Of a stretch of DNA of 64,000 bases, positions 1 through 37,012 are shown piece after piece. The translations under genes and the position numbers were made by a program. Every line of letters begins with the position of its first letter. Position 1 is the stretch's first letter. Origin of the DNA: Candidatus Saccharimonadales bacterium (lineage in GTDB: Bacteria > Patescibacteriota > UBA1384 > 2-12-FULL-50-11); the NCBI GenBank assembly GCA_035480235.1, contig DATIHX010000009.1:3857-67856 (forward strand). Reading direction: 5' to 3'. The notes beneath the pieces were generated by a model. It was not told the origin of the DNA, did not search any database, and saw only the letters and a list, made by a program, of their open reading frames with translations.

Positions 1-780
1 TTTAGTGGCGACTTTAGCTTTGGTCACTTTCTTCGGTTTTTCTTCTTTGGTAATTTCTTCTACTTCTTCCCCTTTGTTTGGAATTTGGGATTTGGTGCTT
101 GGGATTTTCTCCCCCGCTGGCATTTCCACGATCGCGCGCAAAATTAATTCAACCGCCCGTGGTGCGTCGTCGTTGGCCGGAATTGGGTAGGTAATTTTGG
201 CCGGGTTAATGTCGGTATCGGTAATCGCCAAAACCGGAATACTGAGCTGGTTCGCTTCTTGAATAGCGATATTGTCGTTGGAAGCGGTGGCTAAAACAAT
301 TAAGTCTGGTAGTTTGGTTACCTTAGCCAAGCCGCCGAGAAAGCGGTGTAAACGCTTAAACTGGTTTTCTTTTACTAACCGATCTTTCTTGGTTAGCTTG
401 CTGGCTGCCTCAGTAGCCAAAAACGCTTCGATCTCGTTCATCTTTTTAATGTTGCCGAGCATCGTCGAAAAATTAGTTAGCGTGCCGCCGTACCACCGCT
501 CGGTGATGTACGGCGAATTAACACTTTCGGCCACGGCCTTGGTGGCTTCACGGGTGGAACGTTTGGTGCCCACAAAAAGAACTGTTTGATTATTTGCTAA
601 AGCGCCGCCAATCACTTTCTGGGCTCGGCTAATGGCGTCCTGGGTTTGCTCCAGGTTAATTAAGGCGACGTTATTTTTAATACTGTAAATGTAGCCTTGG
701 GCCTTCGGGTAAACCATCGATTTGTGGTGGCCGAAGTGGGCGCCGGATTCAGCAAGTTCTAAAAGGGTTGGAACTGGCAT
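1..780 (-). CDS. rpsB: 30S ribosomal protein S2; C-terminus runs off the left window edge
   Basis: Open-ended, so absent from the ORF track. My reverse-complement translation from the ATG at 780 reads MPVPTLLELAESGAHFGHHKSMVYPKAQGYIY...LFVGTKRSTREA...ITERWYGGTLTNF...LAITDTDINP, which is S2-like. Track ORFs 5..190 and 272..589 (+) are antisense shadows. Confidence 0.9.
   Translation of the reverse strand, partial: MPVPTLLELAESGAHFGHHKSMVYPKAQGYIYSIKNNVALINLEQTQDAISRAQKVIGGALANNQTVLFVGTKRSTREATKAVAESVNSPYITERWYGGTLTNFSTMLGNIKKMNEIEAFLATEAASKLTKKDRLVKENQFKRLHRFLGGLAKVTKLPDLIVLATASNDNIAIQEANQLSIPVLAITDTDINPAKITYPIPANDDAPRAVELILRAIVEMPAGEKIPSTKSQIPNKGEEVEEITKEEKPKKVTKAKVATK
76..111. repeat. in-frame heptamer-repeat module (rpsB tail copy)
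   Basis: gtttggaatttgggatttggtgcttgggattttctc aligns with mnmA 18265-18300. It encodes EKIPSTKSQIPNK. Confidence 0.75.
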
Positions 781-3240: not shown

Positions 3241-3615
3241 CTAATCAGCAGACTCGGTAAGCCGTTCGAGTAGCAACACATCCCCTCCGTGGGCGGAAAT
3301 GGCGAGAACTCGAAAGTTGAACTTCCCTTGACCGTGTTCCCAAGGGATCGTGCCCTCGTGTGGCAGCCTCTTTGGTTCGGTACTGATTTCCGCCATTATT
3401 TCGAGGCGCCGAGTGAACGGATTCTGAAGGTTTTTGGGAACCGTGATAGCTTCTTTCCACGAGCCTTCGATGAAAAAGTCGATCCGCAAAGACGTTTTGG
3501 TGTGTGTGAGGCAGATTTTGGTTGCCCCATCAACAATTGATTGGTCCAAAATCGCCCTCACCAACTTAACAATCGGTGCCTGATTTTCCATCGGCTCAGT
3601 ATCTCTTTCTGACAT
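3241..3615 (-). CDS. stand-alone GspE/PilB N-terminal-subdomain-like protein with no ATPase core
   Basis: GGAGG RBS before the ATG at 3615 (track ORF trimmed from 3672). The pattern IVKLVRAILDQSIVDGATKICL...LRIDFFIEG...TRRLEIMAEIS...LPHEGTI...FRVLAISAHGGDVLLLERL parallels the segment preceding Walker A in the window's own PilB (IVSSLLKRSVREGASDIHIEP...RFRIDG...SRVKILANLKIDE..PQDGRI). Confidence 0.55.
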   Translation of the reverse strand: MSERDTEPMENQAPIVKLVRAILDQSIVDGATKICLTHTKTSLRIDFFIEGSWKEAITVPKNLQNPFTRRLEIMAEISTEPKRLPHEGTIPWEHGQGKFNFRVLAISAHGGDVLLLERLTESAD

Positions 3616-3688
3616 GTGCGTTTTCCTCCAAGGAACTGGGAGTATCTTACAATGGATACCACTAAAAATCAATAGCTTGGATGCTTTT

Positions 3689-4846
3689 TTAATTCCCGAG
3701 GGTGCCGAGGGTAAGTTTCACCGTTTGGCTGGTTTTGTTGCGAAGAATCGTCAGTGTTATTTGCTCGCCGGGGTCGTGAGAACGGATAATTTTTGACAGC
3801 GGATTGCTCTGGGTAACGGCGTCCGAATTCACTTTCGTTATCACATCGTTCACCTGCAAGCCGGCGGCTTGGGCCGGCGCGCCAGTGACCGCTTTAATCA
3901 GGGCGCCGTCAGTGACCGTCAAACCGAGCGTGCTCGCTAAGGTCGCTGTCAACGGCTCGTACTGAACACCGATAAAGGCCCGCAAAATTTTGCCGTTTTT
4001 GGTGTAAGAAGCTAGGGATTTTTGAATTTCGTTAGACGGCGTAACGAAGCCTAGGCTCTGGGCGGAAGCAGCAATGGCGGTATTGATACCGATCACTTGG
4101 CCGCCGAGCGTTAATAACGGCCCGCCAGAGTTACCAGGGTTAATAGCGGCGTCGGTTTGGATTAAATTATCTAGCGATTCGGTGGCGCCGGTCGCTTCAT
4201 CGGCCGGGCTGGCTTGGCGGTTAAGCCCAGAAATTACCCCAACAGTCACCGTATTTTGGTACTGGCCAAGAGCGTTGCCGATCGCCACCACCCACTGGCC
4301 AACTTGGACGTCGTCGGAATTACCAAAGTCCACCACTGGCAAACCGTGGGCCGTAATTTTTAGCAGGGCAAAATCGATGACGGGGTCGGTCGCGGCCACC
4401 GTGGCGTCGTAGGTCTTGCCGTCGCTGGTGGTCACTTTGAAGCCGGCGTTGCCGGTAACGACGTGTTTGTTGGTGGCGATCAAACCGTCACTGGTGACGA
4501 TAAAACCACTACCGGCCACTTTTGACGGCTGGCTGCTCAAACCGTTGATCGAGAAAAGATTAGTTTGAGCCTGGCCGGTGGCTGTAATACTGACAACCGA
4601 CGGCGAGACGTTTTTGGCCGTATCAATAACCTGCGACGATTCTTGAACGTTAATCGTCTGGTTTTTGTTAGTAGAAATGGTGAAGGTTTTGAAGTTGTTC
4701 AGGCCAAGCCGCGTGCGGAGCGCCTCACCGCTGGGGGTCGCCGAAAGAAAATACAAAACCGCCAACGTGGCAATCGCCCCTACAATAAAAACCACGAGCA
4801 ACGTCGCAACATAAGCCGGCCAGCGTTTTTTCCAGTCCCAATTCAT
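3689..4846 (-). CDS. htrA: HtrA/DegP-family serine protease with C-terminal PDZ domain and N-terminal TM anchor
   Basis: Catalytic-Ser motif GNSGGPL, a His region (TNKHVV) and a PDZ-like C-terminus. Confidence 0.9.
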   Translation of the reverse strand: MNWDWKKRWPAYVATLLVVFIVGAIATLAVLYFLSATPSGEALRTRLGLNNFKTFTISTNKNQTINVQESSQVIDTAKNVSPSVVSITATGQAQTNLFSINGLSSQPSKVAGSGFIVTSDGLIATNKHVVTGNAGFKVTTSDGKTYDATVAATDPVIDFALLKITAHGLPVVDFGNSDDVQVGQWVVAIGNALGQYQNTVTVGVISGLNRQASPADEATGATESLDNLIQTDAAINPGNSGGPLLTLGGQVIGINTAIAASAQSLGFVTPSNEIQKSLASYTKNGKILRAFIGVQYEPLTATLASTLGLTVTDGALIKAVTGAPAQAAGLQVNDVITKVNSDAVTQSNPLSKIIRSHDPGEQITLTILRNKTSQTVKLTLGTLGN

Positions 4847-4850
4847 CCTG

Positions 4851-5117
4851 TTATTTGCCTTTCTGGTTTTTTCGCAGCTCGTGTAAATGTTCCGATACTG
4901 TCCTGAGAATTGACTGAACCGCCACGCTAATTGTGCCCATATTGACGATGGCCGGGACGATCTCTTTCACAAATTGCCGAGCGGTTTCGTTCAAGTGGTC
5001 GAGTTTATAGAGCCAACGGTTGGCGCGATATAGCACTATTACCAATAGCACACCGGCCACCAAAAATACGATCAGAACCAAAATCGTTAACGTGTTAATC
5101 CAGTCAGTGCTGCTCAT
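4851..5117 (-). CDS. hypothetical single-pass membrane protein
   Basis: 88 aa with an N-terminal TM helix. It packs tightly between htrA and the mscS-like gene. Confidence 0.55.
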   Translation of the reverse strand: MSSTDWINTLTILVLIVFLVAGVLLVIVLYRANRWLYKLDHLNETARQFVKEIVPAIVNMGTISVAVQSILRTVSEHLHELRKNQKGK

Positions 5118-5647
5118 TTTCCTCCGTTCTTCTTTTGTAACACCACCCAGGCTTCTTTGTCTAACATCGAATTGGGGAAAATATGGAGATTGCCTTCTTC
5201 ATCGCGGAGGCGAATTTTCCGGGCGTCCATCCGCTCCACTCGCCCCATGATTTCACCGACCTTAATAATATCGCCGGTGTTAAAATCTTTGTCTTGAGCC
5301 AAGAATAAACCGGCCACCAAGTCTTGGACGAAGGCGCTCGACCCCACCGAAATCGCAATGCCGGCAATCGCCACGCTGCCCGATAAGGCCAACGAGATTT
5401 GGGTCAACCCAACTTGCTGAAGTAAGGCTGCGATCAGGAAAATCCAGAGCGCCACATCAATGACAGAAATTAAAATCCCCTTCATCGAGGTATTGGCGTG
5501 GGTTACTTTAATTGCCCCGTGTAGCACCGCTTTAATGAGCTTGATGAATAAATAACCGATAATCAGCGTTAGCAAAAGCTGCGGTAATTTGTCCCAGGCA
5601 TTTATGCCGATGCGGAAAAGACTGTCGGCAAACGACGTGAACTGCAT
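5114..5647 (-). CDS. small MscS-family mechanosensitive channel-like protein
   Basis: TM helices followed by DKDFNTGDIIKVGEIMGRVERMDARKIRLRDEEGNLHIFPNS, an MscS beta-domain signature. Start trimmed to the ATG at 5647 (MQFTSF...). Confidence 0.7.
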   Translation of the reverse strand: MQFTSFADSLFRIGINAWDKLPQLLLTLIIGYLFIKLIKAVLHGAIKVTHANTSMKGILISVIDVALWIFLIAALLQQVGLTQISLALSGSVAIAGIAISVGSSAFVQDLVAGLFLAQDKDFNTGDIIKVGEIMGRVERMDARKIRLRDEEGNLHIFPNSMLDKEAWVVLQKKNGGK

Positions 5648-16328: not shown

Positions 16329-17504
16329 TTACTTATTGGCTAGCTCCAGCGCTTTAGCCAGCACGGGATCTGAACTATCGGTTTTAGCGTCGGTTACTTT
16401 AACGTCGGGCTGCAGACCGGTTTTGTTGATGGTTCGGCCGTTGGGCGTTAGCCACTCGGCGATGGTAATCCGCAGCGCCGTATTGCCCGGCAAGTCGATA
16501 ACGTCTTGAACCGAGCCCTTACCGAAGGTTTTTTCGCCGATCAACGTCGCTCGTTTGTAGTCTTGCAAAGCGCCAGCCAGAATCTCGGCGGCCGATGCTG
16601 AGCCGCCGTTGACCAAAACATAGATCGGCGTGGTCGGCAGCACCGGAATAGCGGTGGAGCGCAGCTCGGTAATCTTGCCGCTTTTGCTTTTTTCTTTGAC
16701 CACGATCGAAGGCGCCGCGAACTCGCCGAAGATCGGTGCCACGTCGTCCAGAAAACCACCCGGATCGTCGCGCAGATCAATTATCAATGCCTTGGGTTTG
16801 GAGGCTGCTAAGTCGGTAACGGCTTTCTGGACTTCGCCAACTGTGTCGTTGCCGAACTGGTTAATCTGCAGGAAGGCGACGTTGCCGGCGAGCGTCTTAC
16901 TGCTGACACTCGGCACGGCGATGTCGTCGCGAGTAATTTTAACGTCAAAAGGCTGTTGAACGTTGGAGCGAACAATCGTTAGGGTAACGGCGGTACCTTT
17001 AGCGCCACGAATTTCGCCCACCACCTGGTCCAAACTCTGGCCTTCGGTTGATTTGCCGTCAACTTTGGCGATGACGTCACCGGCTTTCAGCCCAGTTTTT
17101 TCGGCCGGTGAACCGGCCAGCGGCGCCAATATCGTTACCGTCTCATTCTTTTCCACTAACTCGGCGCCGATGCCTTGGAATTGCCCGGAGAGTTCGGTGG
17201 TTAAATCGTTCTTGGCGGCAGTAGTAAGGTATGAGCTGAACGGGTCGCCGAGGCTGTCCACTAGGCCTTGGGTCGCGCCCTGGACGGCCTTATTTTTATC
17301 GAGGCTGCCAACGTAATTAGCCTGAATCAGGCTGTAGACTTTCCAAAAACTGCCCAAGTCTAAACCTTGACGATTTTCCTCAAAACCAATTCCGCCAAAG
17401 ATCCCGGCCAAAAAAACTGCGATAAAAGCCGAGATTAGAAAAATTTTCTTAACCGTTTTTTGTGAGAGACTTTTTTTGGGCTGGGGCGTCGGTTCGGCCA
17501 TCAA
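16329..17504 (-). CDS. S41 C-terminal processing (tail-specific) peptidase with PDZ domain
   Basis: PDZ segment (GLKAGDVIAKVDG), then the S41 core (LIIDLRDDPGG...VLVNGGSASAAEILAGAL...GEKTFGKG). Confidence 0.9.
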   Translation of the reverse strand: MMAEPTPQPKKSLSQKTVKKIFLISAFIAVFLAGIFGGIGFEENRQGLDLGSFWKVYSLIQANYVGSLDKNKAVQGATQGLVDSLGDPFSSYLTTAAKNDLTTELSGQFQGIGAELVEKNETVTILAPLAGSPAEKTGLKAGDVIAKVDGKSTEGQSLDQVVGEIRGAKGTAVTLTIVRSNVQQPFDVKITRDDIAVPSVSSKTLAGNVAFLQINQFGNDTVGEVQKAVTDLAASKPKALIIDLRDDPGGFLDDVAPIFGEFAAPSIVVKEKSKSGKITELRSTAIPVLPTTPIYVLVNGGSASAAEILAGALQDYKRATLIGEKTFGKGSVQDVIDLPGNTALRITIAEWLTPNGRTINKTGLQPDVKVTDAKTDSSDPVLAKALELANK

Positions 17505-18687
17505 GTTTTTGGATAATCTGGTCGGCTGCTGGCACCGAGGCGATTACCGCTCCCCCCAAGAGCTGGCCTTTTTCACTATAAAAAACGATCGATTGGCCGG
17601 GCGTGATGGCTCGAACCGGTTCGCCAAAACGAACAAGAAGTTCTTCGCCTTTAAGCGAGACCGTGCAATCAACATCTTCCTGACGGTACCGGATTTTGGC
17701 TTTCATCGCAATCTGGCGATGAAAGCCACCCTGAGCAAGCGCTAGCGAGTCGAAGGGTTCTTCCGTTAGCCAATTCGCTTGGCTGGCGACTAGCTCACTG
17801 GCGTAGGTTTGGCTATCCGGCCCAACGATTAGGCGGTTATTTTTCAAATCTTTGGCGATCACAAACAGCGGCGGCACGTCTCCGGTCCAGGAAACTGAGC
17901 CGGCACCCAGGCGTTGGCCGATGGTATAGAGGTTAACACCGTCGTGGTGGGCGATGACCCGACCGTCAGTGAGCACAGCAACGCCAGGTTTTGACTTTAA
18001 GCGGCTAGCCAGAAATTGCCGGACTTTTAGTGGGCCAATAAAACAAATCCCCTGACTGTCTTTTTTGGTCGCCGTCGGCAAGCCGGACTTATTAGCCAGC
18101 TGGCGAACTTGGGGTTTAGTTAAATCTCCGAGTGGAAACAAAATATGCGACAGGATCTCCCGGCTAATCCCCCACAGAAAATAAGTCTGATCCTTGTTCT
18201 CATCATGCGCTTTGAAAATCGCTTGATTCGTAAATCCGAATTTCGAATTTCGAATTTCAAAACTGTTTCGGATTTCGGATTTCGTGCTTCGGATTTCTCG
18301 CAACTGTGCGTAGTGCCCTGTAGCCAGGTAATTTGGCTCGAATTGGCGGACGGCCTGCCAGAGCGCTTTAAATTTAATCTCGCGGTTACACAAAATGTCT
18401 GGGTTCGGCGTGACGCCGGCCGCGTAGCCGGCGAAAAATTCGTCAATGACGGCTTGCTCGTATTCTTTGCTCAAATTAACAGTGTAAAACGGGATTTCGA
18501 GCTTGCTGGCGACAGTCCGAGCGTCGGCTTCTTCGCTCTGCCAGTTGCAGGGGAATTCCTCCGTGCCGGTCCAACCCAAAATGTAGACGCCGATGACGTC
18601 GTAATTCTGTTCTTTCAGCAGCGCCGCTGCGACCGAGGAATCGACGCCACCAGACATTAAGGCAATTACCCGTCCTTTTGAATTCAT
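17449..18687 (-). CDS. mnmA: tRNA 2-thiouridine(34) synthase MnmA, carrying an in-frame repeat insert
   Basis: PP-loop MSGGVDSSVAA, ATGHYA and DENKDQTYFL motifs. Start trimmed to the ATG at 18687. Confidence 0.9.
   Translation of the reverse strand: MNSKGRVIALMSGGVDSSVAAALLKEQNYDVIGVYILGWTGTEEFPCNWQSEEADARTVASKLEIPFYTVNLSKEYEQAVIDEFFAGYAAGVTPNPDILCNREIKFKALWQAVRQFEPNYLATGHYAQLREIRSTKSEIRNSFEIRNSKFGFTNQAIFKAHDENKDQTYFLWGISREILSHILFPLGDLTKPQVRQLANKSGLPTATKKDSQGICFIGPLKVRQFLASRLKSKPGVAVLTDGRVIAHHDGVNLYTIGQRLGAGSVSWTGDVPPLFVIAKDLKNNRLIVGPDSQTYASELVASQANWLTEEPFDSLALAQGGFHRQIAMKAKIRYRQEDVDCTVSLKGEELLVRFGEPVRAITPGQSIVFYSEKGQLLGGAVIASVPAADQIIQKLDGRTDAPAQKKSLTKNG
18232..18300. repeat. in-frame heptamer-repeat module, inverted pair (mnmA copy)
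   Basis: aaatccgaatttcgaatttcgaatttcaaaac tg tttcggatttcggatttcgtgcttcggatttctcg. It encodes EIRSTKSEIRNSFEIRNSKFGF inside MnmA. Confidence 0.8.
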
Positions 18688-18738: not shown

Positions 18739-19734
18739 CTAATTGGTAAAGTCCTGCGTAAACATCTCCCCGTAGATGCCGCCATCAATTACGCCCATGC
18801 CAACCTGCCGGAAATCTTTCTCTAAGATATTGGCCCGGTGCTCGGGGGAGTTCATCAAACCGTTGAAGGCCAGTTGGACGTTAGCGGCGTAGGCCAAGTT
18901 CTCGCCGGCCACTTTAAAGGTAATGCCGGCGTCGGTCATCCGGTCGAACGGCGTCTTGCCGTCCGGGTCGTTATGGGCAAAATAGCCGCGGGCGAACATA
19001 TCGCGCGAATGGGCTTCGCCCACCGCCACTAACTTCGTGGCCATCGTCAGCGGCACCAAACCGGCTTGGCGGCGGGCCTGATTGACCAGATCTAGTAGCT
19101 GGGTTTCGGCGGCGGCGTCTACCTTGACGTCGGTGGTGGTAAACTTTAAGTCCACGCGGTCGTTGGAGCCGATAATCTGCTCATTTTGCGGCGGCACCGT
19201 TAAAAACGTCAAGCTTTTTTCGACGTCCCGGCCGAAAATTTTATTCAAATACCCTTCCACCGTACCGCTTTGAGCGACAAACTTACTGCCCAAGTACGAG
19301 CCGTTGATAGCCTGCTTCAGTTGCCTCGGCACCGGGGCGATGACAGCCACCGTCAGAACAATAGCGATAATCACCGCCGCTTTAGCCAGTGCCGGGAAAA
19401 CGCCGGCGATGTGGTTAGATCGACTCCGGCGAATAACGGCGGGCAAGAGATGATAGCCGTATTTGAGGGCCAGAGAGAATAACGCCTGCAAAACCGTCCA
19501 ATCGATGAGAAAGGCCAGCGGGTCAGCGGCTTCCGGCAAAACGCCAGCGTGCGCGGAGAGCCAGGCGCCGATCGGCCGGTACGTCCAGGCGGCCAAGAAA
19601 ATCGTCAGGAAAAAGCCGATCAGCTCCAAAACCTGCTCCATAAAACCGCGGTTGACGCCCTCGAAAACGTAAATAACCAGCGTGACGACTATAATGCCGT
19701 CAATCCAGTTCATGAGCGACAAATCAAAAAGCAA
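18739..19734 (-). CDS. CvpA-like membrane domain fused to a CAP/SCP (PR-1-like) domain
   Basis: The N-terminus has multi-TM CvpA-like helices. The C-terminus reads AHSRDMFARGYFAHNDPDG...GENLAY...MNSPEHRANIL. Confidence 0.75.
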   Translation of the reverse strand: MLFDLSLMNWIDGIIVVTLVIYVFEGVNRGFMEQVLELIGFFLTIFLAAWTYRPIGAWLSAHAGVLPEAADPLAFLIDWTVLQALFSLALKYGYHLLPAVIRRSRSNHIAGVFPALAKAAVIIAIVLTVAVIAPVPRQLKQAINGSYLGSKFVAQSGTVEGYLNKIFGRDVEKSLTFLTVPPQNEQIIGSNDRVDLKFTTTDVKVDAAAETQLLDLVNQARRQAGLVPLTMATKLVAVGEAHSRDMFARGYFAHNDPDGKTPFDRMTDAGITFKVAGENLAYAANVQLAFNGLMNSPEHRANILEKDFRQVGMGVIDGGIYGEMFTQDFTN

Positions 19735-19771
19735 AAATTAAAAGTTAAAATTGTTGAGTGGCGATGCGACA

Positions 19772-26913: not shown

Positions 26914-26938
26914 CCGCTCAATCGAGCGGGGATTTTTT
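26914..26938 (+). terminator. intrinsic terminator
   Basis: CCGCTC aatc GAGCGG gga TTTTTT. Confidence 0.65.
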
Positions 26939-29906
26939 AAATTCGGTCGAGCAGACTTTCGTCGAGTTCGGCCAGGAAGCGGCTGGGCAGCGTTGAGGTT
27001 AAGCCGCCGTGAATGATCCGCTGGCGGGCGTGCGTCAGGTACAAGCGTTTGCGGGCCCGGGTCATGCCCACATAACAAAGCCGGCGCTCTTCGTCCATCT
27101 CGCTTTGGTCTTCCAGCGCTCGCAGGTGCGGGAACAGGCCCTCTTCCATCCCGGTCAAAAAGACGGTCGTAAATTCCAGGCCTTTGGCGGCGTGCATGCT
27201 CATCATCGTCACCGCGTCAGCCGAGCCGTCGTAGTTATCGACGTCCGAAACTAAGGCGACGTGTTCTAAAAAATCTTCCAGATTTTCAAACTCGAAGGCC
27301 AAGTTTTTTAATTCTTCGACGTTCTCCCAACGAGCCTCGCCCTCGGGCGTGCCGTCGTTCACATAGTCCTGATATTTGATCGTTTTCAAAAGCGTCTCTA
27401 TAACCACTTGCGGCGTACTTTCGGCGACCATCGCTCTTAATGTCGCCATCTCGTTCAAAAAAGCCTGGACTTTTTCGCCGCCAGTGGCGAGCGTTTTTGG
27501 CCCGATCCCGCGGGTTGGCACGTTAATAATTCGGGCCAGCGAATGGGTATCGCTCTGGTTCAGCAAAAAGCGCAGATAGGCCAAGATGTCTTTGACTTCT
27601 TTCCGTTCATAGAAGCGCAGGGCACCGATCAGCCGGTACGGCACGCCTTCGTTTAAGAAGATTTCCTCGATCACCCGCGACTGGGCATTGGTCCGGTACA
27701 AGACCGCGAACTCGCCCCAATTTTTGCCCATGTTGTGGAGAACCCTGGCTTCTTCAGCGATAAAATCCGCTTCGCCGTAAGCGTTGTGAGCCTCGAAAAC
27801 GGTGATCGGCGGCCCTTCTTCGTTATCGGTCCAGAGTTTTTTGTCGGACTTCCTTTTGATCCGGTCAACAATTTGATTAGCGCCCTTAAGGATGGTTTTG
27901 GTCGAGCGGTAATTCTGCTCCAGTTTAATAACGGTCGTGCCGGGAAAATCCCGGGCGAAATTGAGGATATTTTTGAAATTGGCCCCGCGCCAGCCGTAAA
28001 TAGAGTTGTGCACTACAATGCCATTTGCAATAAGGGTGTTGCTTTCAACTACGTCAATATCATAAACGAGTCCCTCGTATTGCTCAAAAACCACTTCAGC
28101 AATTTCAGCGGTGACAACTTTCCCGTCCTCAACTATCGGCACAAGCATACCTGGGCGTAAATGAGCAGCCGGTTGCCAGGGGAAGTTTCTATCTTCCTTG
28201 GTTAGTCGGGCCGCTCGGTGTAAATCGACTTCGCCAGCTTTGCTCAGCTCTTCCGCTAAAGTGTAAGCGTCCGCAAAGTGCTTGCGCGATGTTTCCACAC
28301 GACGACTCTTTTTATCAGCCCGGGTTTCGATACCAGCGTTCGATAACCGCTCCAATAAGGCGGTGTTGCTTGTAGTCAAGCGGACACGGTGAGCATGCCA
28401 AGGCAACTTTGTTTCGACACGGCTATCGCCGAATTGGATTAAATAAGCTTGAGCCCGACCAGGGTAAAGGTTAGACAGTTCAGTTGTCACCGCCTGTGGT
28501 CGAAAATGTGGGTACTCGGAAAATAAAAGATAATCAGCCATTAAATTCTCCGCATTGGTGGTCGTATCGATTTCTTTATAAATCTGATCAATGTGTTTCT
28601 GGGTAAATGTCAGTCCGTCTCGACCCAGCGAAAAGAATAGTACTTTGGGGATCTGGTATTTGAGTGAGAGAAGCTCCTCCTGGTAACGGGCTTCAACTAA
28701 ACTACTCGTGACGACGATAATCCACATTTTATCGGCTCGTTCTTGATTCGCCCTAGCAAGTAAACCGTTTATTTCGCCTTTACCGGGGTTACGAATACCC
28801 CGCGTTATTCCCAATCGATAGCCCTTATCAGCCCGGAACATCAGGTAAACGTACCACTGACCTTCTTTCGGCTGGAGACGGGCGAAACAAATATGTTCCG
28901 GTGTCATCGTAACCGAGCGGCCGGATTTTGTTCTAATCTGTACGACACTGCCCTTATATTTCGTGGTTCTTACTTCGTTGACAGAGAATTGCTGCGTTTC
29001 TCCAAAACCACTGGCAGCCACAATCTTGGTGCCTTTTTTCACTTTTTCAATCGGCAATTCTTTTTCTAGAGTCAGGACTTTAGTATTAGGTAATAGGCAC
29101 TGGTAATCGTCGCCGACGACGCATAAATTCTTGGCGGTTGGGTTCATCAGCGCCAATGTCAGCCGGTACTGGGCGTGGTTGGTGTCTTGATACTCGTCGA
29201 CCATCACGTATTTGAAGAGTTTGTTGTACTTGGCTTTGATCGCTGGGTTGTTCTCGAGCATCCGAACTGTTTCACCGATTAAGTCGTCAAAATCCAGCGC
29301 CGAGAGTTTTTTTAGCTCTTTCTCGTAATTTTTGAACACGTCGACAGCGATCGTTTGAAAGTGGCCGTCGGCGTAGGTTTCGTACTGGGCCGCCGTTTGC
29401 AGCTCGTTTTTGGCGTTGGAGATAATGCTGCGAATCGCCTGGGGGCTGTATTGTTTCGGGTCGAGGTTTTTGTCCTTGAGGGCTTGTTTGATCACCAAGA
29501 GTGAGTCGTCGGAATCAAAAATGGTGAAGCTCCGGCTCAGGCCGATATTTTCGGCTTCAGCGCGGAGCAACCGGACGCAAATGCTGTGAAAGGTGCCGAC
29601 CCAAGGCAACCGGCGACGCATCACTAAATTCGGGTTTTTGGCCCAGGCGCTTTCGTCGTGACCGAGGATTTTTAATATCCGGTGGCCGAGTTCCTGGGCG
29701 GCTTTATTAGTGAACGTCACCATCAAGATTTCATCGAGCTCGGCTTTGTGTTCGGCCACGATATAGGCCATACGGTGGGTCAGGCACTTGGTTTTGCCGG
29801 AGCCGGCCCCGGCCAAGATTAAAACCGGCCCTTCGGTCGCCCGGACCGCTTCCTGCTGCGGCTCGTTCAAATCCGTAAAAATGTCGGTGGTTTTTGTCTC
29901 ACTCAT
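26937..29906 (-). CDS. pcrA: UvrD/PcrA-family DNA helicase interrupted by an intein
   Basis: Walker A GAGSGKTK, DEYQDT, motif III split as VGDDYQ | intein | SIYGWRGA, and later helicase motifs (VTMMSMHAAKGLEF, LCYVGMTRAR). Start trimmed to the ATG at 29906. Confidence 0.9.
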   Translation of the reverse strand: MSETKTTDIFTDLNEPQQEAVRATEGPVLILAGAGSGKTKCLTHRMAYIVAEHKAELDEILMVTFTNKAAQELGHRILKILGHDESAWAKNPNLVMRRRLPWVGTFHSICVRLLRAEAENIGLSRSFTIFDSDDSLLVIKQALKDKNLDPKQYSPQAIRSIISNAKNELQTAAQYETYADGHFQTIAVDVFKNYEKELKKLSALDFDDLIGETVRMLENNPAIKAKYNKLFKYVMVDEYQDTNHAQYRLTLALMNPTAKNLCVVGDDYQCLLPNTKVLTLEKELPIEKVKKGTKIVAASGFGETQQFSVNEVRTTKYKGSVVQIRTKSGRSVTMTPEHICFARLQPKEGQWYVYLMFRADKGYRLGITRGIRNPGKGEINGLLARANQERADKMWIIVVTSSLVEARYQEELLSLKYQIPKVLFFSLGRDGLTFTQKHIDQIYKEIDTTTNAENLMADYLLFSEYPHFRPQAVTTELSNLYPGRAQAYLIQFGDSRVETKLPWHAHRVRLTTSNTALLERLSNAGIETRADKKSRRVETSRKHFADAYTLAEELSKAGEVDLHRAARLTKEDRNFPWQPAAHLRPGMLVPIVEDGKVVTAEIAEVVFEQYEGLVYDIDVVESNTLIANGIVVHNSIYGWRGANFKNILNFARDFPGTTVIKLEQNYRSTKTILKGANQIVDRIKRKSDKKLWTDNEEGPPITVFEAHNAYGEADFIAEEARVLHNMGKNWGEFAVLYRTNAQSRVIEEIFLNEGVPYRLIGALRFYERKEVKDILAYLRFLLNQSDTHSLARIINVPTRGIGPKTLATGGEKVQAFLNEMATLRAMVAESTPQVVIETLLKTIKYQDYVNDGTPEGEARWENVEELKNLAFEFENLEDFLEHVALVSDVDNYDGSADAVTMMSMHAAKGLEFTTVFLTGMEEGLFPHLRALEDQSEMDEERRLCYVGMTRARKRLYLTHARQRIIHGGLTSTLPSRFLAELDESLLDRI
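28005..29099 (-). mobile_element. intein (365 codons) in helicase motif III
   Basis: Starts with Cys (CLLPNTKVLT), has block B TPEH, and ends ...NGIVVHN followed by extein Ser. Removing it restores VGDDYQSIYGWRGA. Confidence 0.85.
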
Positions 29907-29937
29907 GCGCTCATCAGCATAGCGGAAGTACGGAGTA

Positions 29938-29963
29938 GAAAAAAGCCGCGGATATACCGCGGC
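29938..29963 (-). terminator. intrinsic terminator separating the 724-aa gene from pcrA
   Basis: Minus strand: GCCGCGG tatat CCGCGGC TTTTTTC. Confidence 0.7.
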
Positions 29964-29970
29964 GGGTTCG

Positions 29971-32145
29971 TTAGTTGGCCTTAGCTGAGGCAACTCCCAA
30001 CTTGAAAACCAAGCTACTCATATTGCTATCTCCCAGGTCGAGATACCGTCGGGCTGCCCGAATTATGGCCGCATCTCCGGTTAGGAAGATGGCCCACTCG
30101 AGCCAGGCTTTGGCTTCCATATCGGCTTGATGGGCAAGGAGCCACCGCTTGAAATCTGCCACGCCTTTGTGGAACTCAAGCCAGTCAAACCAGAATTGCC
30201 GCTGGACATCGTAATTGTGGCGCAGAACGCCACGCAACTTAGCCAGCGCTTGGAGGAACATCCTTACCTGGTCCGCTTCGCTGTAGCCGTACTTTGCAAC
30301 GAACCGAGCCTTCGCTTCGTCCGAATGACCCTTACTCTCTTTATGGTAATCGATGAGACTCTCCTCGATCCAGTTTTCGGCAAACCATGCATCCACCTTT
30401 TTCCGCCATCGAGAATTGAGCCATTGTTTCGGCCTGTCAGCCGAGCTAACTAACTTAATAACGACGTCCTGAGCATGAGCGTATCTTTCTCGAGAATGGT
30501 TAATAGCCCAAGCGATTTCCAGTAATGCAGCTCGCACTTCGGCATCTCGATCGAATCGGGACATGAGATGCTCTTGGAGCCAGGCCAATTTGCCTTCATA
30601 GCCTCCTTCGGGCTGATAGAAGAGCGCTGAAACCACTACATCTTTGACGGCGACGCCGCAATCAAGGAGTGTATCCCGCCAGTGAGCGTCAGCCCAAAAG
30701 GCAGCCGATTCTGGCAGCGCTTCCCTTCCAGCGTAGTGGGATTGATAGGGCAAGATTGCCCGAACCACATTTTCGCTTTGGAGATCGGCCCTTACTAGCT
30801 GATAACCGGCCTTATAACAGGCTTCGGCATGATCTTCATTTGCGCTCAGGAGAGCACCTGGTTGAATGCCCCAAGGAATAACAAACTCCTTTACGAGCTT
30901 TTCCAGGCGATAAGCCAAATAACGCTCTTTCGGAGCTACGTAGCTGGCAATCCAACGACGCAAAACGGCCTTAGCCGCCTCCTCGTCGGGTTGGTCAGCC
31001 AGCCAGTCCGCCAGCTGACCAGCGTCAAGCTTATCGGCTACCGGATCAATCGAACCGGCGAGCTGGCGCCGACTCTCCTCCGGCAACTCGCTGTAGAAGC
31101 AATCCCAATCCCCGCTTTCAACGGCTAGCCGTCTCAGATACGGTGCAGCGATCCCGAAGGGCAGCTGCATAAGGACGTCGTAGAGCCGGGGAGCGCGATC
31201 TTCCGGAGCGCCTTTGTGGAGCGGATGCTCCTTATTGTTATGGGCAGCGAACCAACCCTCCAAGTTGGTCGTTAGCCCAGGGCTAATCGCTAGCTCCGGC
31301 AGCAACTCGTTTGCCAGCCGCCACGCGTAGTGGCTGTTGATACCAGCGAGCTCGGCGCGCTCAGCCGAGCTGAGCTCGCCGATGAACCGCTTCACAACCT
31401 TAACTGCATACCTTGAGACGTAGTCGTTTCGGTAGCTCGAGCCTTCTTTGATCACTGGCTCGCCCCGCAACGCCCCAACTAGTTCCGGCCAGAGACCACG
31501 GGGCAAGGCCCCGAGAAGAGTCGTGGGCGTCCTATCCTTTGAATGATCGACGGACTCGTCAAAGATCCAGCAGAATAAGTGTTGTCGCAAGTCTGGCAAA
31601 TGAGCCAGCTCCGGTAGCCCAACAGTTTCATTGACCAGACTTGCCAGGTTATCATCCCTCGGTTGGTAGACCCAGCGACAGGCCTGGTAGAATTCGACGT
31701 CGTTGTCGGCGGGTCGGTGGGTATACCGTCGCCCCAATCTACAGGCGGTGGCAATTTCCTCCCAGCTGACTTGCCCGTTTCCGGTAATCCGCGCCCAGAC
31801 CTGGTGCGCCGAGGTTGGGACCAGCGAAAGGTTGCGGACGAGGAACTTGTCGATGAAAGATTGCCGATTGGCGGCCGAATGGTTGGCTGCGTACAGCAAG
31901 CTTGTCAGCACCAGCGGATCGGTCTCCCGAGCCTGAAGATGCTCACGAGCTACGCGAAACAGTGGCGAGTCAGGATTCAGGGCGTTACTGGCCAAACTCT
32001 CGACTGCCAGCCGTGAGTTCCAGGTGCGCTCATCTTCGAGCAGGAACTTTAGGCCTAAGTTTCGAGTGCGATTATCGAGTTTGGCTCGGAAATCGAGACG
32101 ATGCATCAGGGTTTTACCCCATTCAGATAGATTAGCAGTGTTCAT
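29971..32145 (-). CDS. large orphan protein (724 aa), Trp-rich and helical-looking, no recognised motif
   Basis: AGGAGGAAGT RBS before the ATG at 32145. Uninterrupted 2.2-kb ORF with its own terminator. No signal peptide, TM helix or Walker motif seen. Confidence 0.8.
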   Translation of the reverse strand: MNTANLSEWGKTLMHRLDFRAKLDNRTRNLGLKFLLEDERTWNSRLAVESLASNALNPDSPLFRVAREHLQARETDPLVLTSLLYAANHSAANRQSFIDKFLVRNLSLVPTSAHQVWARITGNGQVSWEEIATACRLGRRYTHRPADNDVEFYQACRWVYQPRDDNLASLVNETVGLPELAHLPDLRQHLFCWIFDESVDHSKDRTPTTLLGALPRGLWPELVGALRGEPVIKEGSSYRNDYVSRYAVKVVKRFIGELSSAERAELAGINSHYAWRLANELLPELAISPGLTTNLEGWFAAHNNKEHPLHKGAPEDRAPRLYDVLMQLPFGIAAPYLRRLAVESGDWDCFYSELPEESRRQLAGSIDPVADKLDAGQLADWLADQPDEEAAKAVLRRWIASYVAPKERYLAYRLEKLVKEFVIPWGIQPGALLSANEDHAEACYKAGYQLVRADLQSENVVRAILPYQSHYAGREALPESAAFWADAHWRDTLLDCGVAVKDVVVSALFYQPEGGYEGKLAWLQEHLMSRFDRDAEVRAALLEIAWAINHSRERYAHAQDVVIKLVSSADRPKQWLNSRWRKKVDAWFAENWIEESLIDYHKESKGHSDEAKARFVAKYGYSEADQVRMFLQALAKLRGVLRHNYDVQRQFWFDWLEFHKGVADFKRWLLAHQADMEAKAWLEWAIFLTGDAAIIRAARRYLDLGDSNMSSLVFKLGVASAKAN

Positions 32146-35352: not shown

Positions 35353-35379
35353 CCACATCTCAAAGTGATGTGGTTTTTT
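35353..35379 (+). terminator. intrinsic terminator (overlaps the dnaX stop)
   Basis: CCACATC tcaaagt GATGTGG TTTTTT. Confidence 0.65.
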
Positions 35380-36910
35380 ATTTCACTTCTTCCAGCTCAA
35401 AGACGTCGACGACGGCTTCCATGAGGTCGTCTTCGCTTTTGACGGGAATGCTGAGTTCGGTTTTAACCACCGAATCCAAAACCAGCGGTTTGCCGGCGAC
35501 GGTTTCGGCGACTTTTTCCAGTAACTTCCGGTTTTTGATCTCGCCAAGGCGGTCGGCGTAGAACTTGAATTTAACGGCGATAATCAGCTTATCGTCGGTT
35601 AGCTCGGCCAGTTCAGCGGCCCGAACGACGGCGTACAAGGCGTGATTGTGGTTTTTCACTTCGGCGATAAAGCGCGGCCAGAAATCCCCACTATCAGTTG
35701 GTGGGGCAGCAGCTTTGGGCGATTCGGTAACCGCGTCCACCGCTACCGGCGTCTCTTCGGCCGGTTTTTGAATATCCATCGGGGTTGGTTTACCCTGAGC
35801 CTGGTCGAAGGGAGCGTCTTCAGCTTTTTCCGCCACACCAGTTTTGGTAATTGGAATTTCGGTATTGGAATTTGTTTGTGATTTGGGATTTGGAGTTTGA
35901 AGTTTTCCGCTTTGCTGCAGCAGCCGGGCCACCAGTAAAGCGGTTGGATCGGCCGAGACCCGGGCCCGGGCCAGAGTGGCTAAAAGCATCTCCAACAAGT
36001 CGGCGGTTTGGCCGAGCGCTGCCGGGTCGCTGGCGCCCAGTAACTCTTCCCGTAATTCGTCGGCGACGGCTTTCACCAAAACCGCTAGGTCACTACCCGT
36101 CGCCAAGGCTTCGGTTAATAATCTTTTGACGGCCGTTTGGTCGCCGGTAATCAGCGCTATTTTCAGAGCCGCCACCGTTTCGCCGGGCGGCAAACCCAAG
36201 AGCACCCGCACCGCCCCGGCATTTAAATCGGCCGCGCCGCTCAAACTGCCAAGGAGCGTTAAGGCGTCGCGGAACGAGCCCTCGGCCCGGCGGGTAATTA
36301 AATTTAAGCCCTCGTCATCTAGAGTAATTTTTTCCTGCTTGGCGATGGCTTTTAAGACGCCGAGCAAAGCTTCCGGCGAGGCCCGGTGAAACTGGTAGCG
36401 CTGGCAGCGGGAAACGATCGTCACCGGCACTTTTTGCAACTCGGTGGTGGCTAGAATAAAAATGACGTGGGCTGGCGGCTCTTCCAGGGTTTTCAGTAAA
36501 GCATTGAAGGCTGAAGTAGAAAGCATATGGACTTCGTCGATGATGTAAACCTTGTATTTAGCACTGCTTGGCGCGAAGCCGACCTTTTCCCGCAACTCAC
36601 GGATATCGTCCACCCCGTTATTAGAGGCGGCATCAATCTCAATGACGTCCAACAGCTGGCCGTTATCAAACTGGAGGCAGATCTCGCACTGCCCACACGG
36701 CTCACCGGCCTTTGAGCGGTTTTGGCAATTAACCGCCCGGGCCAGCAGCCGAGCTAGGCTGGTTTTGCCGGTGCCGCGCGGGCCGGAGAACAAATAGGCG
36801 TGGCCCACCGAGTTGTTGGTGAGTGAATTGGTAATGGCCGTAATTAAATGGTCTTGGCCGACGACCTCGGAGAATTTAGTGGGACGGTAGGTTCGGTAAA
36901 GCGATGACAT
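35378..36910 (-). CDS. dnaX: DNA polymerase III subunit gamma/tau
   Basis: Walker A GPRGTGKTS, a Zn module (CQNRSKAGEPCGQCEIC), DEVHML and SRCQ. Start trimmed to the ATG at 36910. Confidence 0.9.
   Translation of the reverse strand: MSSLYRTYRPTKFSEVVGQDHLITAITNSLTNNSVGHAYLFSGPRGTGKTSLARLLARAVNCQNRSKAGEPCGQCEICLQFDNGQLLDVIEIDAASNNGVDDIRELREKVGFAPSSAKYKVYIIDEVHMLSTSAFNALLKTLEEPPAHVIFILATTELQKVPVTIVSRCQRYQFHRASPEALLGVLKAIAKQEKITLDDEGLNLITRRAEGSFRDALTLLGSLSGAADLNAGAVRVLLGLPPGETVAALKIALITGDQTAVKRLLTEALATGSDLAVLVKAVADELREELLGASDPAALGQTADLLEMLLATLARARVSADPTALLVARLLQQSGKLQTPNPKSQTNSNTEIPITKTGVAEKAEDAPFDQAQGKPTPMDIQKPAEETPVAVDAVTESPKAAAPPTDSGDFWPRFIAEVKNHNHALYAVVRAAELAELTDDKLIIAVKFKFYADRLGEIKNRKLLEKVAETVAGKPLVLDSVVKTELSIPVKSEDDLMEAVVDVFELEEVK
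35846..35910. repeat. in-frame heptamer-repeat module (dnaX linker copy)
   Basis: ggtaattggaatttcggtattggaatttgtttgtgatttgggatttggagtttgaagttttccgc. It encodes KLQTPNPKSQTNSNTEIPITK. Confidence 0.65.
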
Positions 36911-37012
36911 GACACAATTGACCGTGCCACAAAACTCCCCGTTTGTCATCAGTTGCTTGGCGCCCTGACGAGGCGTAGAATGAGCCCTGAGCCCAAACGG
37001 GCAGGAGGAAAA

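Follow-up and report, generated by a model that had tools for sequence, protein, structure and literature searches.

Three related segments built from 7-nt units lie in frame inside rpsB, mnmA and dnaX on a 64,000-nucleotide stretch of a Candidatus Saccharimonadales genome (contig DATIHX010000009.1, positions 3,857 to 67,856; this whole stretch is called the window below). On balance, we consider these segments to be copies of a dispersed repeat family resembling the REP (repetitive extragenic palindromic), RPE (Rickettsia palindromic element) and STRR (short tandemly repeated repetitive) sequences, with the encoded peptides as passengers and the sequence maintained at the DNA or RNA level. 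The family has multiple copies, most of them outside genes and few between divergent genes, and orthologous sites may or may not carry one. Homology to extragenic copies, insertion/deletion polymorphism among orthologs, the structural permissiveness of MnmA, positions outside the Pfam domains of S2 and DnaX and conservation at the nucleotide level support this interpretation.

Heptamer segments in rpsB, mnmA and dnaX

A preliminary description of the window had placed related segments in these three minus-strand genes, and both the sequence itself and the period-7 arrays reported by Tandem Repeats Finder (77-107, 18237-18258, 18266-18297 and 35875-35893) agree with the positions it gave. The peptides it quoted, EKIPSTKSQIPNK in S2, EIRSTKSEIRNS in MnmA and LQTPNPKSQTNS in DnaX, were found in frame on the minus-strand translation. 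On the plus strand the rpsB copy reads GTTT GGAATTT GGGATTT GGTGCTT GGGATTT, which gives EKIPSTKSQIPN on the gene strand. The mnmA copy consists of the plus-strand arms AAATCCGAATTTCGAATTTCGAATTTCAAAAC and GTTTCGGATTTCGGATTTCGTGCTTCGGATTT and encodes REIRSTKSEIRNSFEIRNSKFGF between GHYAQL and TNQAIFK, while the dnaX copy reads GTTTTGGTAATTGGAATTTCGGTATTGGAATTT GTTT GTGATTT GGGATTT GGAGTTT GAAGTTT and encodes KLQTPNPKSQTNSNTEIPITKT. For dnaX the description had located a segment correctly at 35874-35910 but made it too short, as the whole degenerate arm begins at about 35843 and a profile match (see below) at 35835. Likewise, the proposed period of about 7 nt for the GGATTTS units was correct, but GTGCTTS, which had been taken as irregular, turned out in a unit census to be a second regular unit of the family.

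The 32-nt pattern GTTTSGGATTTSGGATTTSGTGCTTSGGATTT occurs without mismatch in mnmA and with one mismatch in rpsB, and no match with up to three mismatches was obtained in 100 dinucleotide-preserving shuffles. Orientation and frame relative to the element are identical in the three copies. The inverted copy suspected ahead of the mnmA module is real: two arms of 32 nt each (18232-18263 and 18265-18296), 75% complementary and 1 nt apart, form a hairpin with a folding z-score of about -2.4 on either strand. Only this copy is palindromic in the window; those in rpsB and dnaX are single arms.

Distribution of the repeat family

The 20-mer GGATTTSGTGCTTSGGATTT, which spans three units, was scanned in one genome per GTDB species (1.2e12 positions). 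It was found in at least 120 genome stretches, compared with about 4 expected by chance from a uniform-composition estimate, so that the motif is abundant outside the window; its absence elsewhere, with matches no better than shuffled low-complexity sequence, was what the preliminary description had named as fatal to its proposal. Counted as labelled in the sequence records, the carriers span about 13 phyla among the matches listed, and the GC content of the loci ranges from 0.34 to 0.71; the carriers are therefore not one mis-binned lineage. They include Planctomycetota, Desulfobacterota, Patescibacteria (many of them Saccharibacteria), Chloroflexota, Verrucomicrobiota/Victivallales, Acidobacteriota and Omnitrophota, and further Hydrogenedentes, Nitrospirae, Binatia, Auribacterota, Bacteroidota and Gammaproteobacteria, one carrier among the latter being the isolate Wenzhouxiangella sp. 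15190.

A profile built from 129 arms, every one of them from phyla other than that of the window, recovered all three copies: mnmA at 18229-18298 (E = 1e-12; reverse arm, E = 0.012), dnaX at 35835-35899 (E = 1.5e-6) and rpsB at 83-107 (E = 6e-5). No other significant site was detected with this profile in the 64 kb of the window, and 20 shuffled windows yielded one match with an E-value of about 5.

Outside the window most copies of the family are intergenic, among them copies in L031. By a rough open reading frame (ORF) heuristic, 19 palindromic copies lie between convergent, 28 between co-directional and 4 between divergent genes. On a phage contig the exact mnmA module is located within an intercistronic leader. 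Copies inside genes were also seen elsewhere. Two in-frame copies occur in the gene of one translational GTPase, LepA/EF4, of a Levyibacteriota genome (L130, about 3300-5200): the first, encoding KIRSTKSEIRK, lies towards the N-terminal end of the ORF, before the DTPGH motif, and the second, a full hairpin of about 35 residues, lies between the G domain and domain II. In a PIF1-type helicase of Saccharibacteria the module is in frame within the linker ahead of the helix-turn-helix domain.

Searches of databases and literature did not assign the element to a described family. At gathering thresholds, Rfam detected only tRNAs in the window and 18 loci, and a permissive Rfam scan of one full element gave only a sub-threshold likeness to plant microRNA hairpins, which we read as a mere effect of the long hairpin. 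Neither PLSDB plasmids nor INPHARED phages yielded a BLAST match to a full element, a negative to which the low-complexity filter may contribute. The exact strings of six element sequences were not found in the literature, and searches by concept gave only general papers on heptamer repeats and RPEs.

In a metagenome-assembled genome (MAG) of Sungiibacteriota (L082, 1874-1915 and 4384-4430), the module lies near the C-terminus, at the same position, in two paralogous cysteine-rich ORFs of about 600 residues as read from the DNA; the one scanned had no Pfam match. This suggests that the gene was duplicated after acquisition of the module. Pure (AAATCCS)n arrays terminate 5-12 nt upstream of what look like same-strand ATG start codons in IMG/VR contigs with a GC content of 0.5-0.69 (L001, L014/L032, L016/L021/L036, L017, L027 and L030). 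In contigs labelled as giant-virus MAGs (L019, L022, L028 and further GVMAG loci; GC about 0.3), (GGGATTT)n arrays are long and pure, and the composite module is missing. A Phycisphaerales MAG (L110, 2872-3013) has the module in three direct copies with a period of 61 nt and with identical sequence between the copies. A CRISPR array, which a 36-nt module starting with GTTT and this 61-nt periodicity might bring to mind, was rejected, as the identical "spacers" of L110 indicate a tandem duplication of the element together with its flank.

Architecture of the full element

The family copies also have conserved flanks. To the left of the module lie the GTTT junction and then TTTGAATTT and TTGGTCATT units, and farther left are A-rich units in 7-nt phasing that represent a second arm. 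The full element is therefore an imperfect palindrome, and the module of the preliminary description is the outer part of one arm of this larger element. It comprises about 90-190 nt, its arms are strings of heptamer units, and its full form is approximately AAATCCGAAGCACGAAATCCGAAAC AAATTCAAATGACCAAAATTCAAAAC - loop - GTTTTGAATTTTGGTCATTTGAATTT GTTT CGGATTT CGTGCTT CGGATTT. The unit set consists of SGGATTT (CGGATTT or GGGATTT), SGTGCTT (CGTGCTT), GAATTT and TGGTCAT in addition to the GTTT junction.

A count over the retrieved loci gave 98 single arms besides 65 palindromic elements, the latter with a median length of 151 nt and a folding z-score of about -7.5 relative to shuffles. The subtypes of the two arms covary (C/C 45, G/G 6, discordant 1; p = 3e-7). 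Open reading frames are about twice as frequent in the arms as in shuffled sequence.

Heptamer microsatellites grown independently by polymerase slippage in low-complexity coding DNA, whose likeness among genes and phyla would be convergence, would give another account of the arrays. In many bacteria, heptamers exceed all other long simple repeats in over-representation, and slippage has been put forward to explain this (PMC4679880, PMC4692102). The C/G position is mostly uniform within a copy (CC 95, GG 26, mixed 14), an ortholog of DnaX carries another unit, CAATAAT, at the same place, and the empty MnmA site is already unit-like (both described below), all of which would fit slippage. On the other hand, the copies share non-periodic features, namely the GTTT junction, an A-B-A order of units and an inner TGGTCATTTGAATTT block, a profile from other phyla reaches the E-value given above for mnmA, and slippage alone does not produce a palindrome whose arms covary. 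Independent slippage is thus, in our estimation, quite improbable as the origin of the three segments.

Presence and absence among orthologs

Alignment of orthologs agreed with the proposal of lineage-specific insertions, as close orthologs of MnmA, S2 and DnaX lack the segment. The lengthening of MnmA noted in the preliminary description was also borne out: the spacing between GHY and KDQ is 41 residues in the window protein compared with 18 in the basal form of MnmA in the Candidate Phyla Radiation (CPR), and it reaches 75 residues among 120 homologs, nearly all of them from CPR. The inserts range from 0 to about 57 residues and are all located at one site. Many of them read as translations of element units (KSEIRNP, KSQIPNP, STKS and, by reading of the DNA, KIENSKLKIEN). 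In a neighbour-joining tree, insert-bearing and insert-less MnmA proteins are interleaved, and the sister protein P0003 (72% identical, syntenic) has no insert. The uninserted site already resembles element units (ATTTTCAAA and CCAAATTACCAAACC).

For S2, an ortholog with 92% identity (P0243) is without the module, and one with 77% identity carries SNPKSEVPNK. For DnaX, a heptamer stretch at the site was found in the closest ortholog only (P0122, 76% identical; L234), where it occupies the linker codons after LLQSS. Its units are of the (CAATAAT)n type and not of the GGGATTT type of the arm in the window, so that the period has been kept while the unit has changed.

Intergenic copies vary in the same way. 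A syntenic relative (L160) contains full palindromic copies in two intergenic gaps, TatD-CAP and M48-ligA, which are absent from the corresponding sites of the window and of L162. In the window, the region 19718-19752 (minus strand) is a gap orthologous to one that holds a full palindromic element in L160. Tandem Repeats Finder reported a period-7 array (AAATTAA) there at 19721-19750, to which the arm profile gave no match; this array may be a decayed arm. Beside an element within one intergenic gap, L160 carries a second heptamer palindrome (2500-2640) of other units, with GAAGTAC/GAATTAT on one side and CATAATTC on the other, and CPR genomes thus seem to hold more than one family of heptamer palindromes.

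The sites occupied in the proteins appear to be permissive. An AlphaFold2 model of MnmA has a mean pLDDT of 90.7 and superposes on the solved structures 2hma and 2deu, both of which lack the segment, with a TM-score of 0.88. In this model the insert (pLDDT 54-73) is placed between strands E118-122 and E144-148, i.e. at the tip of a beta-hairpin, at low model confidence. The S2 copy is located downstream of the end of the Pfam domain, in the tail, and the DnaX copy well past the Pfam domains, in a linker. The host folds are accordingly predicted to be undisturbed by the encoded segments, for MnmA from the model and for S2 and DnaX from the position outside their Pfam domains.

Constraint on the nucleotide sequence

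Third codon positions of the mnmA insert were compared with those of the relatives L233 and L160. Identity was 0.79 (window versus L233), 0.71 (window versus L160) and 0.72 (L233 versus L160), whereas the maxima of windows of the same length elsewhere in mnmA were 0.71, 0.62 and 0.68, respectively, all below the insert. Codons for identical amino acids were themselves identical in 17 of 20 cases in the insert versus 102 of 229 elsewhere (p = 7e-4). Orthologous copies of the insert differ largely by swaps of whole units (GAAATCC to GAAGCAC), and the switch between the C and G subtypes replaces P by R and Q by E in every unit with an unchanged DNA pattern. Synonymous-site conservation, unit swaps and subtype switching together point to constraint or homogenisation acting on DNA or RNA and not on the peptide. 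This also settles another point raised in the preliminary description, that orthologs might share the peptide with unrelated DNA: orthologs sharing the MnmA peptide keep the DNA conserved.

These data bear directly on the possibility that the peptide itself is selected, i.e. that a low-complexity linker or interaction motif of the KSQIPNP or KSEIRNP type was acquired independently by the three proteins. The common orientation and frame of all three copies and the recurrence of related peptides at the MnmA site across many CPR lineages would be expected in this case. However, the same DNA is non-coding in most genomes, the subtype switch alters the peptide in every unit at constant DNA pattern, synonymous sites are conserved, and the segment has low confidence in the MnmA model and is dispensable in close orthologs. 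A search of the 31-residue insert peptide against 1.84 billion protein representatives gave two weak matches, the query being too short to be useful; one match looks like a spurious ORF over tandem copies of the element and the other is a different repeat. The evidence speaks against a function of the peptide, and we regard selection for it as highly improbable.

The antisense hairpin was more stable than the sense hairpin in four of four orthologous mnmA inserts. For 31 intergenic palindromes between co-directional genes, folding energies showed no significant bias between sense and antisense strands (12 versus 19, p = 0.15), and strand asymmetry was therefore dropped as a sign of selection at the RNA level.

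Constraint on the nucleic acid could also reflect a signal that benefits the host. The heptamers would then form an array of 7-nt binding sites for a conserved single-strand-binding protein, such as the cold-shock, S1 or CsrA types suggested as readers of TAACTGA repeats, or a hairpin processed in mRNA, and coding copies would be translated regulatory sites. Such a signal would account for the insert being the best-conserved window of mnmA at synonymous sites, for a unit set conserved over about 13 phyla and for variation of orthologous copies by whole-unit swaps in place of scattered point changes. Copies within a genome are not near-identical, so that there is no recent selfish burst, and arrays of several viral contigs and of L160 stop a few nucleotides short of a start codon, as do the TAACTGA repeats of Beggiatoaceae (PMC4679880). 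Against it, close relatives do without copies in all three genes, as in the 92% identical S2 and the sister MnmA, and rpsB, mnmA and dnaX have no functional link to one another. Moreover, the strand bias just mentioned is not significant and no Rfam family matched. Taking both sides together, we judge a host signal to be a serious but rather unlikely explanation.

Host genes and neighbouring features

Coordinates of the three copies and of their host genes are given in Table 1. The NCBI product of mnmA (P0001) starts 10 codons further in than the ORF listed.

Table 1. Copies of the heptamer repeat in the window and the genes that carry them
Feature	Position	Strand	Form or product	Location in the protein or support
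Copy 1, rpsB	76..111	-	single outer arm, G-type units	C-terminal tail of ribosomal protein S2
Copy 2, mnmA	18232..18300	-	short hairpin, C-type units, 69 nt = 23 codons	
Copy 3, dnaX	about 35843..35910	-	whole single arm, degenerate, G-type units	linker after clamp-loader ATPase and lid domains
rpsB	1..780	-	ribosomal protein S2	Pfam PF00318, E = 1.2e-69; C-terminus beyond window start
mnmA	17449..18687	-	tRNA 2-thiouridine(34) synthase	Pfam and structural superposition
dnaX	35378..36949	-	DNA polymerase III gamma/tau	Pfam

Between the 3' end of mnmA and the start called for the downstream PDZ/S41 peptidase gene there is an overlap of about 50 nt (17449-17504; L159, 11157-11209). The gene calls of L160 and L162 overlap similarly, and this could be either a real overlap or a shared mis-called start. 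Elsewhere on the window's minus strand, an ORF of 1018 residues (26937-29993) is the counterpart of a UvrD-type helicase that was called with 989 residues and has Intein_splicing (PF14890) among its precomputed Pfam matches; this helicase appears to contain an intein.

Discussion

The features described above recall several known repeat systems. In Rickettsia felis, 728 RPEs have been reported, 85 of them within ORFs (PMC1166351). Like RPEs, the present elements are small repeats, palindromic in their full form, that occur in coding and non-coding DNA and whose genic copies are in frame, translated and tolerated: they lie within ORFs in the three window genes, LepA and the PIF1-type helicase, and are intergenic in L160 and L031. 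The analogy with RPEs drawn in the preliminary description has thus gained from a repeat that is mostly intergenic elsewhere, from presence and absence among orthologs and from permissive protein sites. RPEs are about 100-150 bp long, compared with 69 nt for the mnmA copy, and the rpsB and dnaX copies consist of single arms. The host, a member of the Saccharimonadales within CPR, differs from Rickettsia as well, and the element is built of 7-nt units and its family spans many phyla. We do not claim membership in the RPE family and regard the element as belonging to a different one.

Heptameric simple sequence repeats are known as the cyanobacterial STRR, as GGGGA(T/C)T of Nostoc and as GGGAATC of Xanthomonas (PMC4692102). 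They share with our element tandem 7-nt units, a mostly intergenic location, often about four units and sometimes inverted pairs (PMC4692102). GGGATTT resembles GGGGATT of Nostoc. The inner unit TTGGTCA we take to be that of Calothrix STRR2. The head-to-tail 7-nt unit is thus present, but the element is no simple array of one unit, as it combines several unit types in a preferred order with the GTTT junction and an inverted arm to a defined composite palindrome. Its range, about 13 phyla, also goes beyond a single genus, and it has in-frame copies in housekeeping genes. Its C-type copies cannot form G-quadruplexes, and a G-quadruplex role was rejected as a general explanation since the commoner C-type units lack G-runs.

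For the TAACTGA repeats of marine Beggiatoaceae, Cyanobacteria and Bacteroidetes, S1, Csp and CsrA have been proposed as readers and translational regulation as the role (PMC4679880). They, too, form patchy cross-phylum heptamer arrays, often just upstream of start codons and in some cases in ORFs at the periphery of the protein (PMC4679880). They differ in their unit, which in the forward direction has stops in all frames, and in being direct repeats and not palindromes. Four-heptamer elements (GGGACCG/GGACCGG) with 49 copies within and between genes have been described in Geobacter metallireducens (PMC2700814). These are likewise short heptamer arrays within and between genes, but with a GC-rich unit, described from a single genome and not described as palindromes.

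With REP, BIME and REPIN sequences the element shares multiple copies of an imperfect palindrome, a mostly extragenic location and rarity between divergent genes, as is typical of REP sequences, by which transcription of the elements would take place at gene 3' ends. Two REP super-families are defined by GTAG and CGTC tags (PMC3733652); neither tag was found at the ends of the consensus or of individual copies. Whereas the REP palindrome has 20-40 nt, the present element has the median length given above, is heptamer-built and has copies inside genes. The one element cluster that we inspected (L144) showed no RAYT transposase.

If the three segments are copies of a dispersed repeat, as we propose, coding copies in a gene-dense CPR genome would persist under four conditions. 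The length of the copy would have to be a multiple of three; the gene strand would have to be the A-rich orientation, in which the frame used is free of stops and encodes hydrophilic peptides of K, S, E, Q, I, P, R and N; the copy would have to fall into a tail as in S2, into a linker between domains as in DnaX or onto a beta-hairpin tip as in MnmA; and the host fold would have to remain untouched. The family itself might spread selfishly or neutrally, with insertion, microhomology recombination, slippage or fold-back copying as conceivable routes. What preserves its sequence might be the requirements of its own propagation or a heptamer-reading factor of the cell.

Several observations weigh against such a repeat. 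The single cluster inspected, which flanks ORFs resembling arginine-biosynthesis genes by reading of their translations, contains no transposase-like ORF (L144). No target-site duplication was detected at the mnmA junctions in comparison with the empty site in L162, the sequences being about 25% diverged, and the filled and empty intergenic sites (L160 versus the window and L162) could not be aligned for such a duplication. Flank identity is 0.64 between copies within a genome and 0.56 between genomes of different phyla; copies within a genome are thus barely more alike, and there is no sign of the recent burst expected of an active miniature inverted-repeat transposable element (MITE). Recent proliferation was rejected on this basis. 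The near-identical within-genome copies of MITEs are accordingly missing here, and the whole element is the inverted repeat. Synonymous-site conservation and the cross-phylum unit set could equally mean a host function. Since only one window copy, that in mnmA, has two arms, the hairpin is not essential to all copies. Finally, the counts of gene context rest on a crude ORF heuristic.

A further possibility, which we put forward tentatively, is that of an undescribed cross-phylum family of hairpins written in heptamer "words", read or written by a conserved factor and under selection at the nucleotide level even when translated. A single-strand-binding protein whose footprint is 7 nt, or else a process of replication or repair, could be this factor, and it would be the cause for the same unit set from Patescibacteria to Planctomycetota, Desulfobacterota, Chloroflexota and others.

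Heptamer repeats and palindromic repeats within genes were already known; new here is a cross-phylum composite palindromic heptamer element that occurs in frame in housekeeping genes of CPR bacteria with conserved synonymous sites. The finding extends the Rickettsia paradigm of palindromic repeats within genes to CPR/Patescibacteria, whose small, gene-dense genomes therefore offer a repeat few sites beyond permissive protein loops. It accounts for recurrent length variation in MnmA, S2 and DnaX of CPR, and also in LepA and the PIF1-type helicase, variation that might otherwise pass for functional domains specific to a lineage or for annotation errors. Segments of the element can mislead gene callers, with spurious ORFs over intergenic copies, as well as alignment trimming and structure prediction. 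The cross-phylum composite and the conservation of synonymous sites raise the question of what reads or copies the 7-nt units, which bears on the long-noted excess of heptamer repeats in bacteria.

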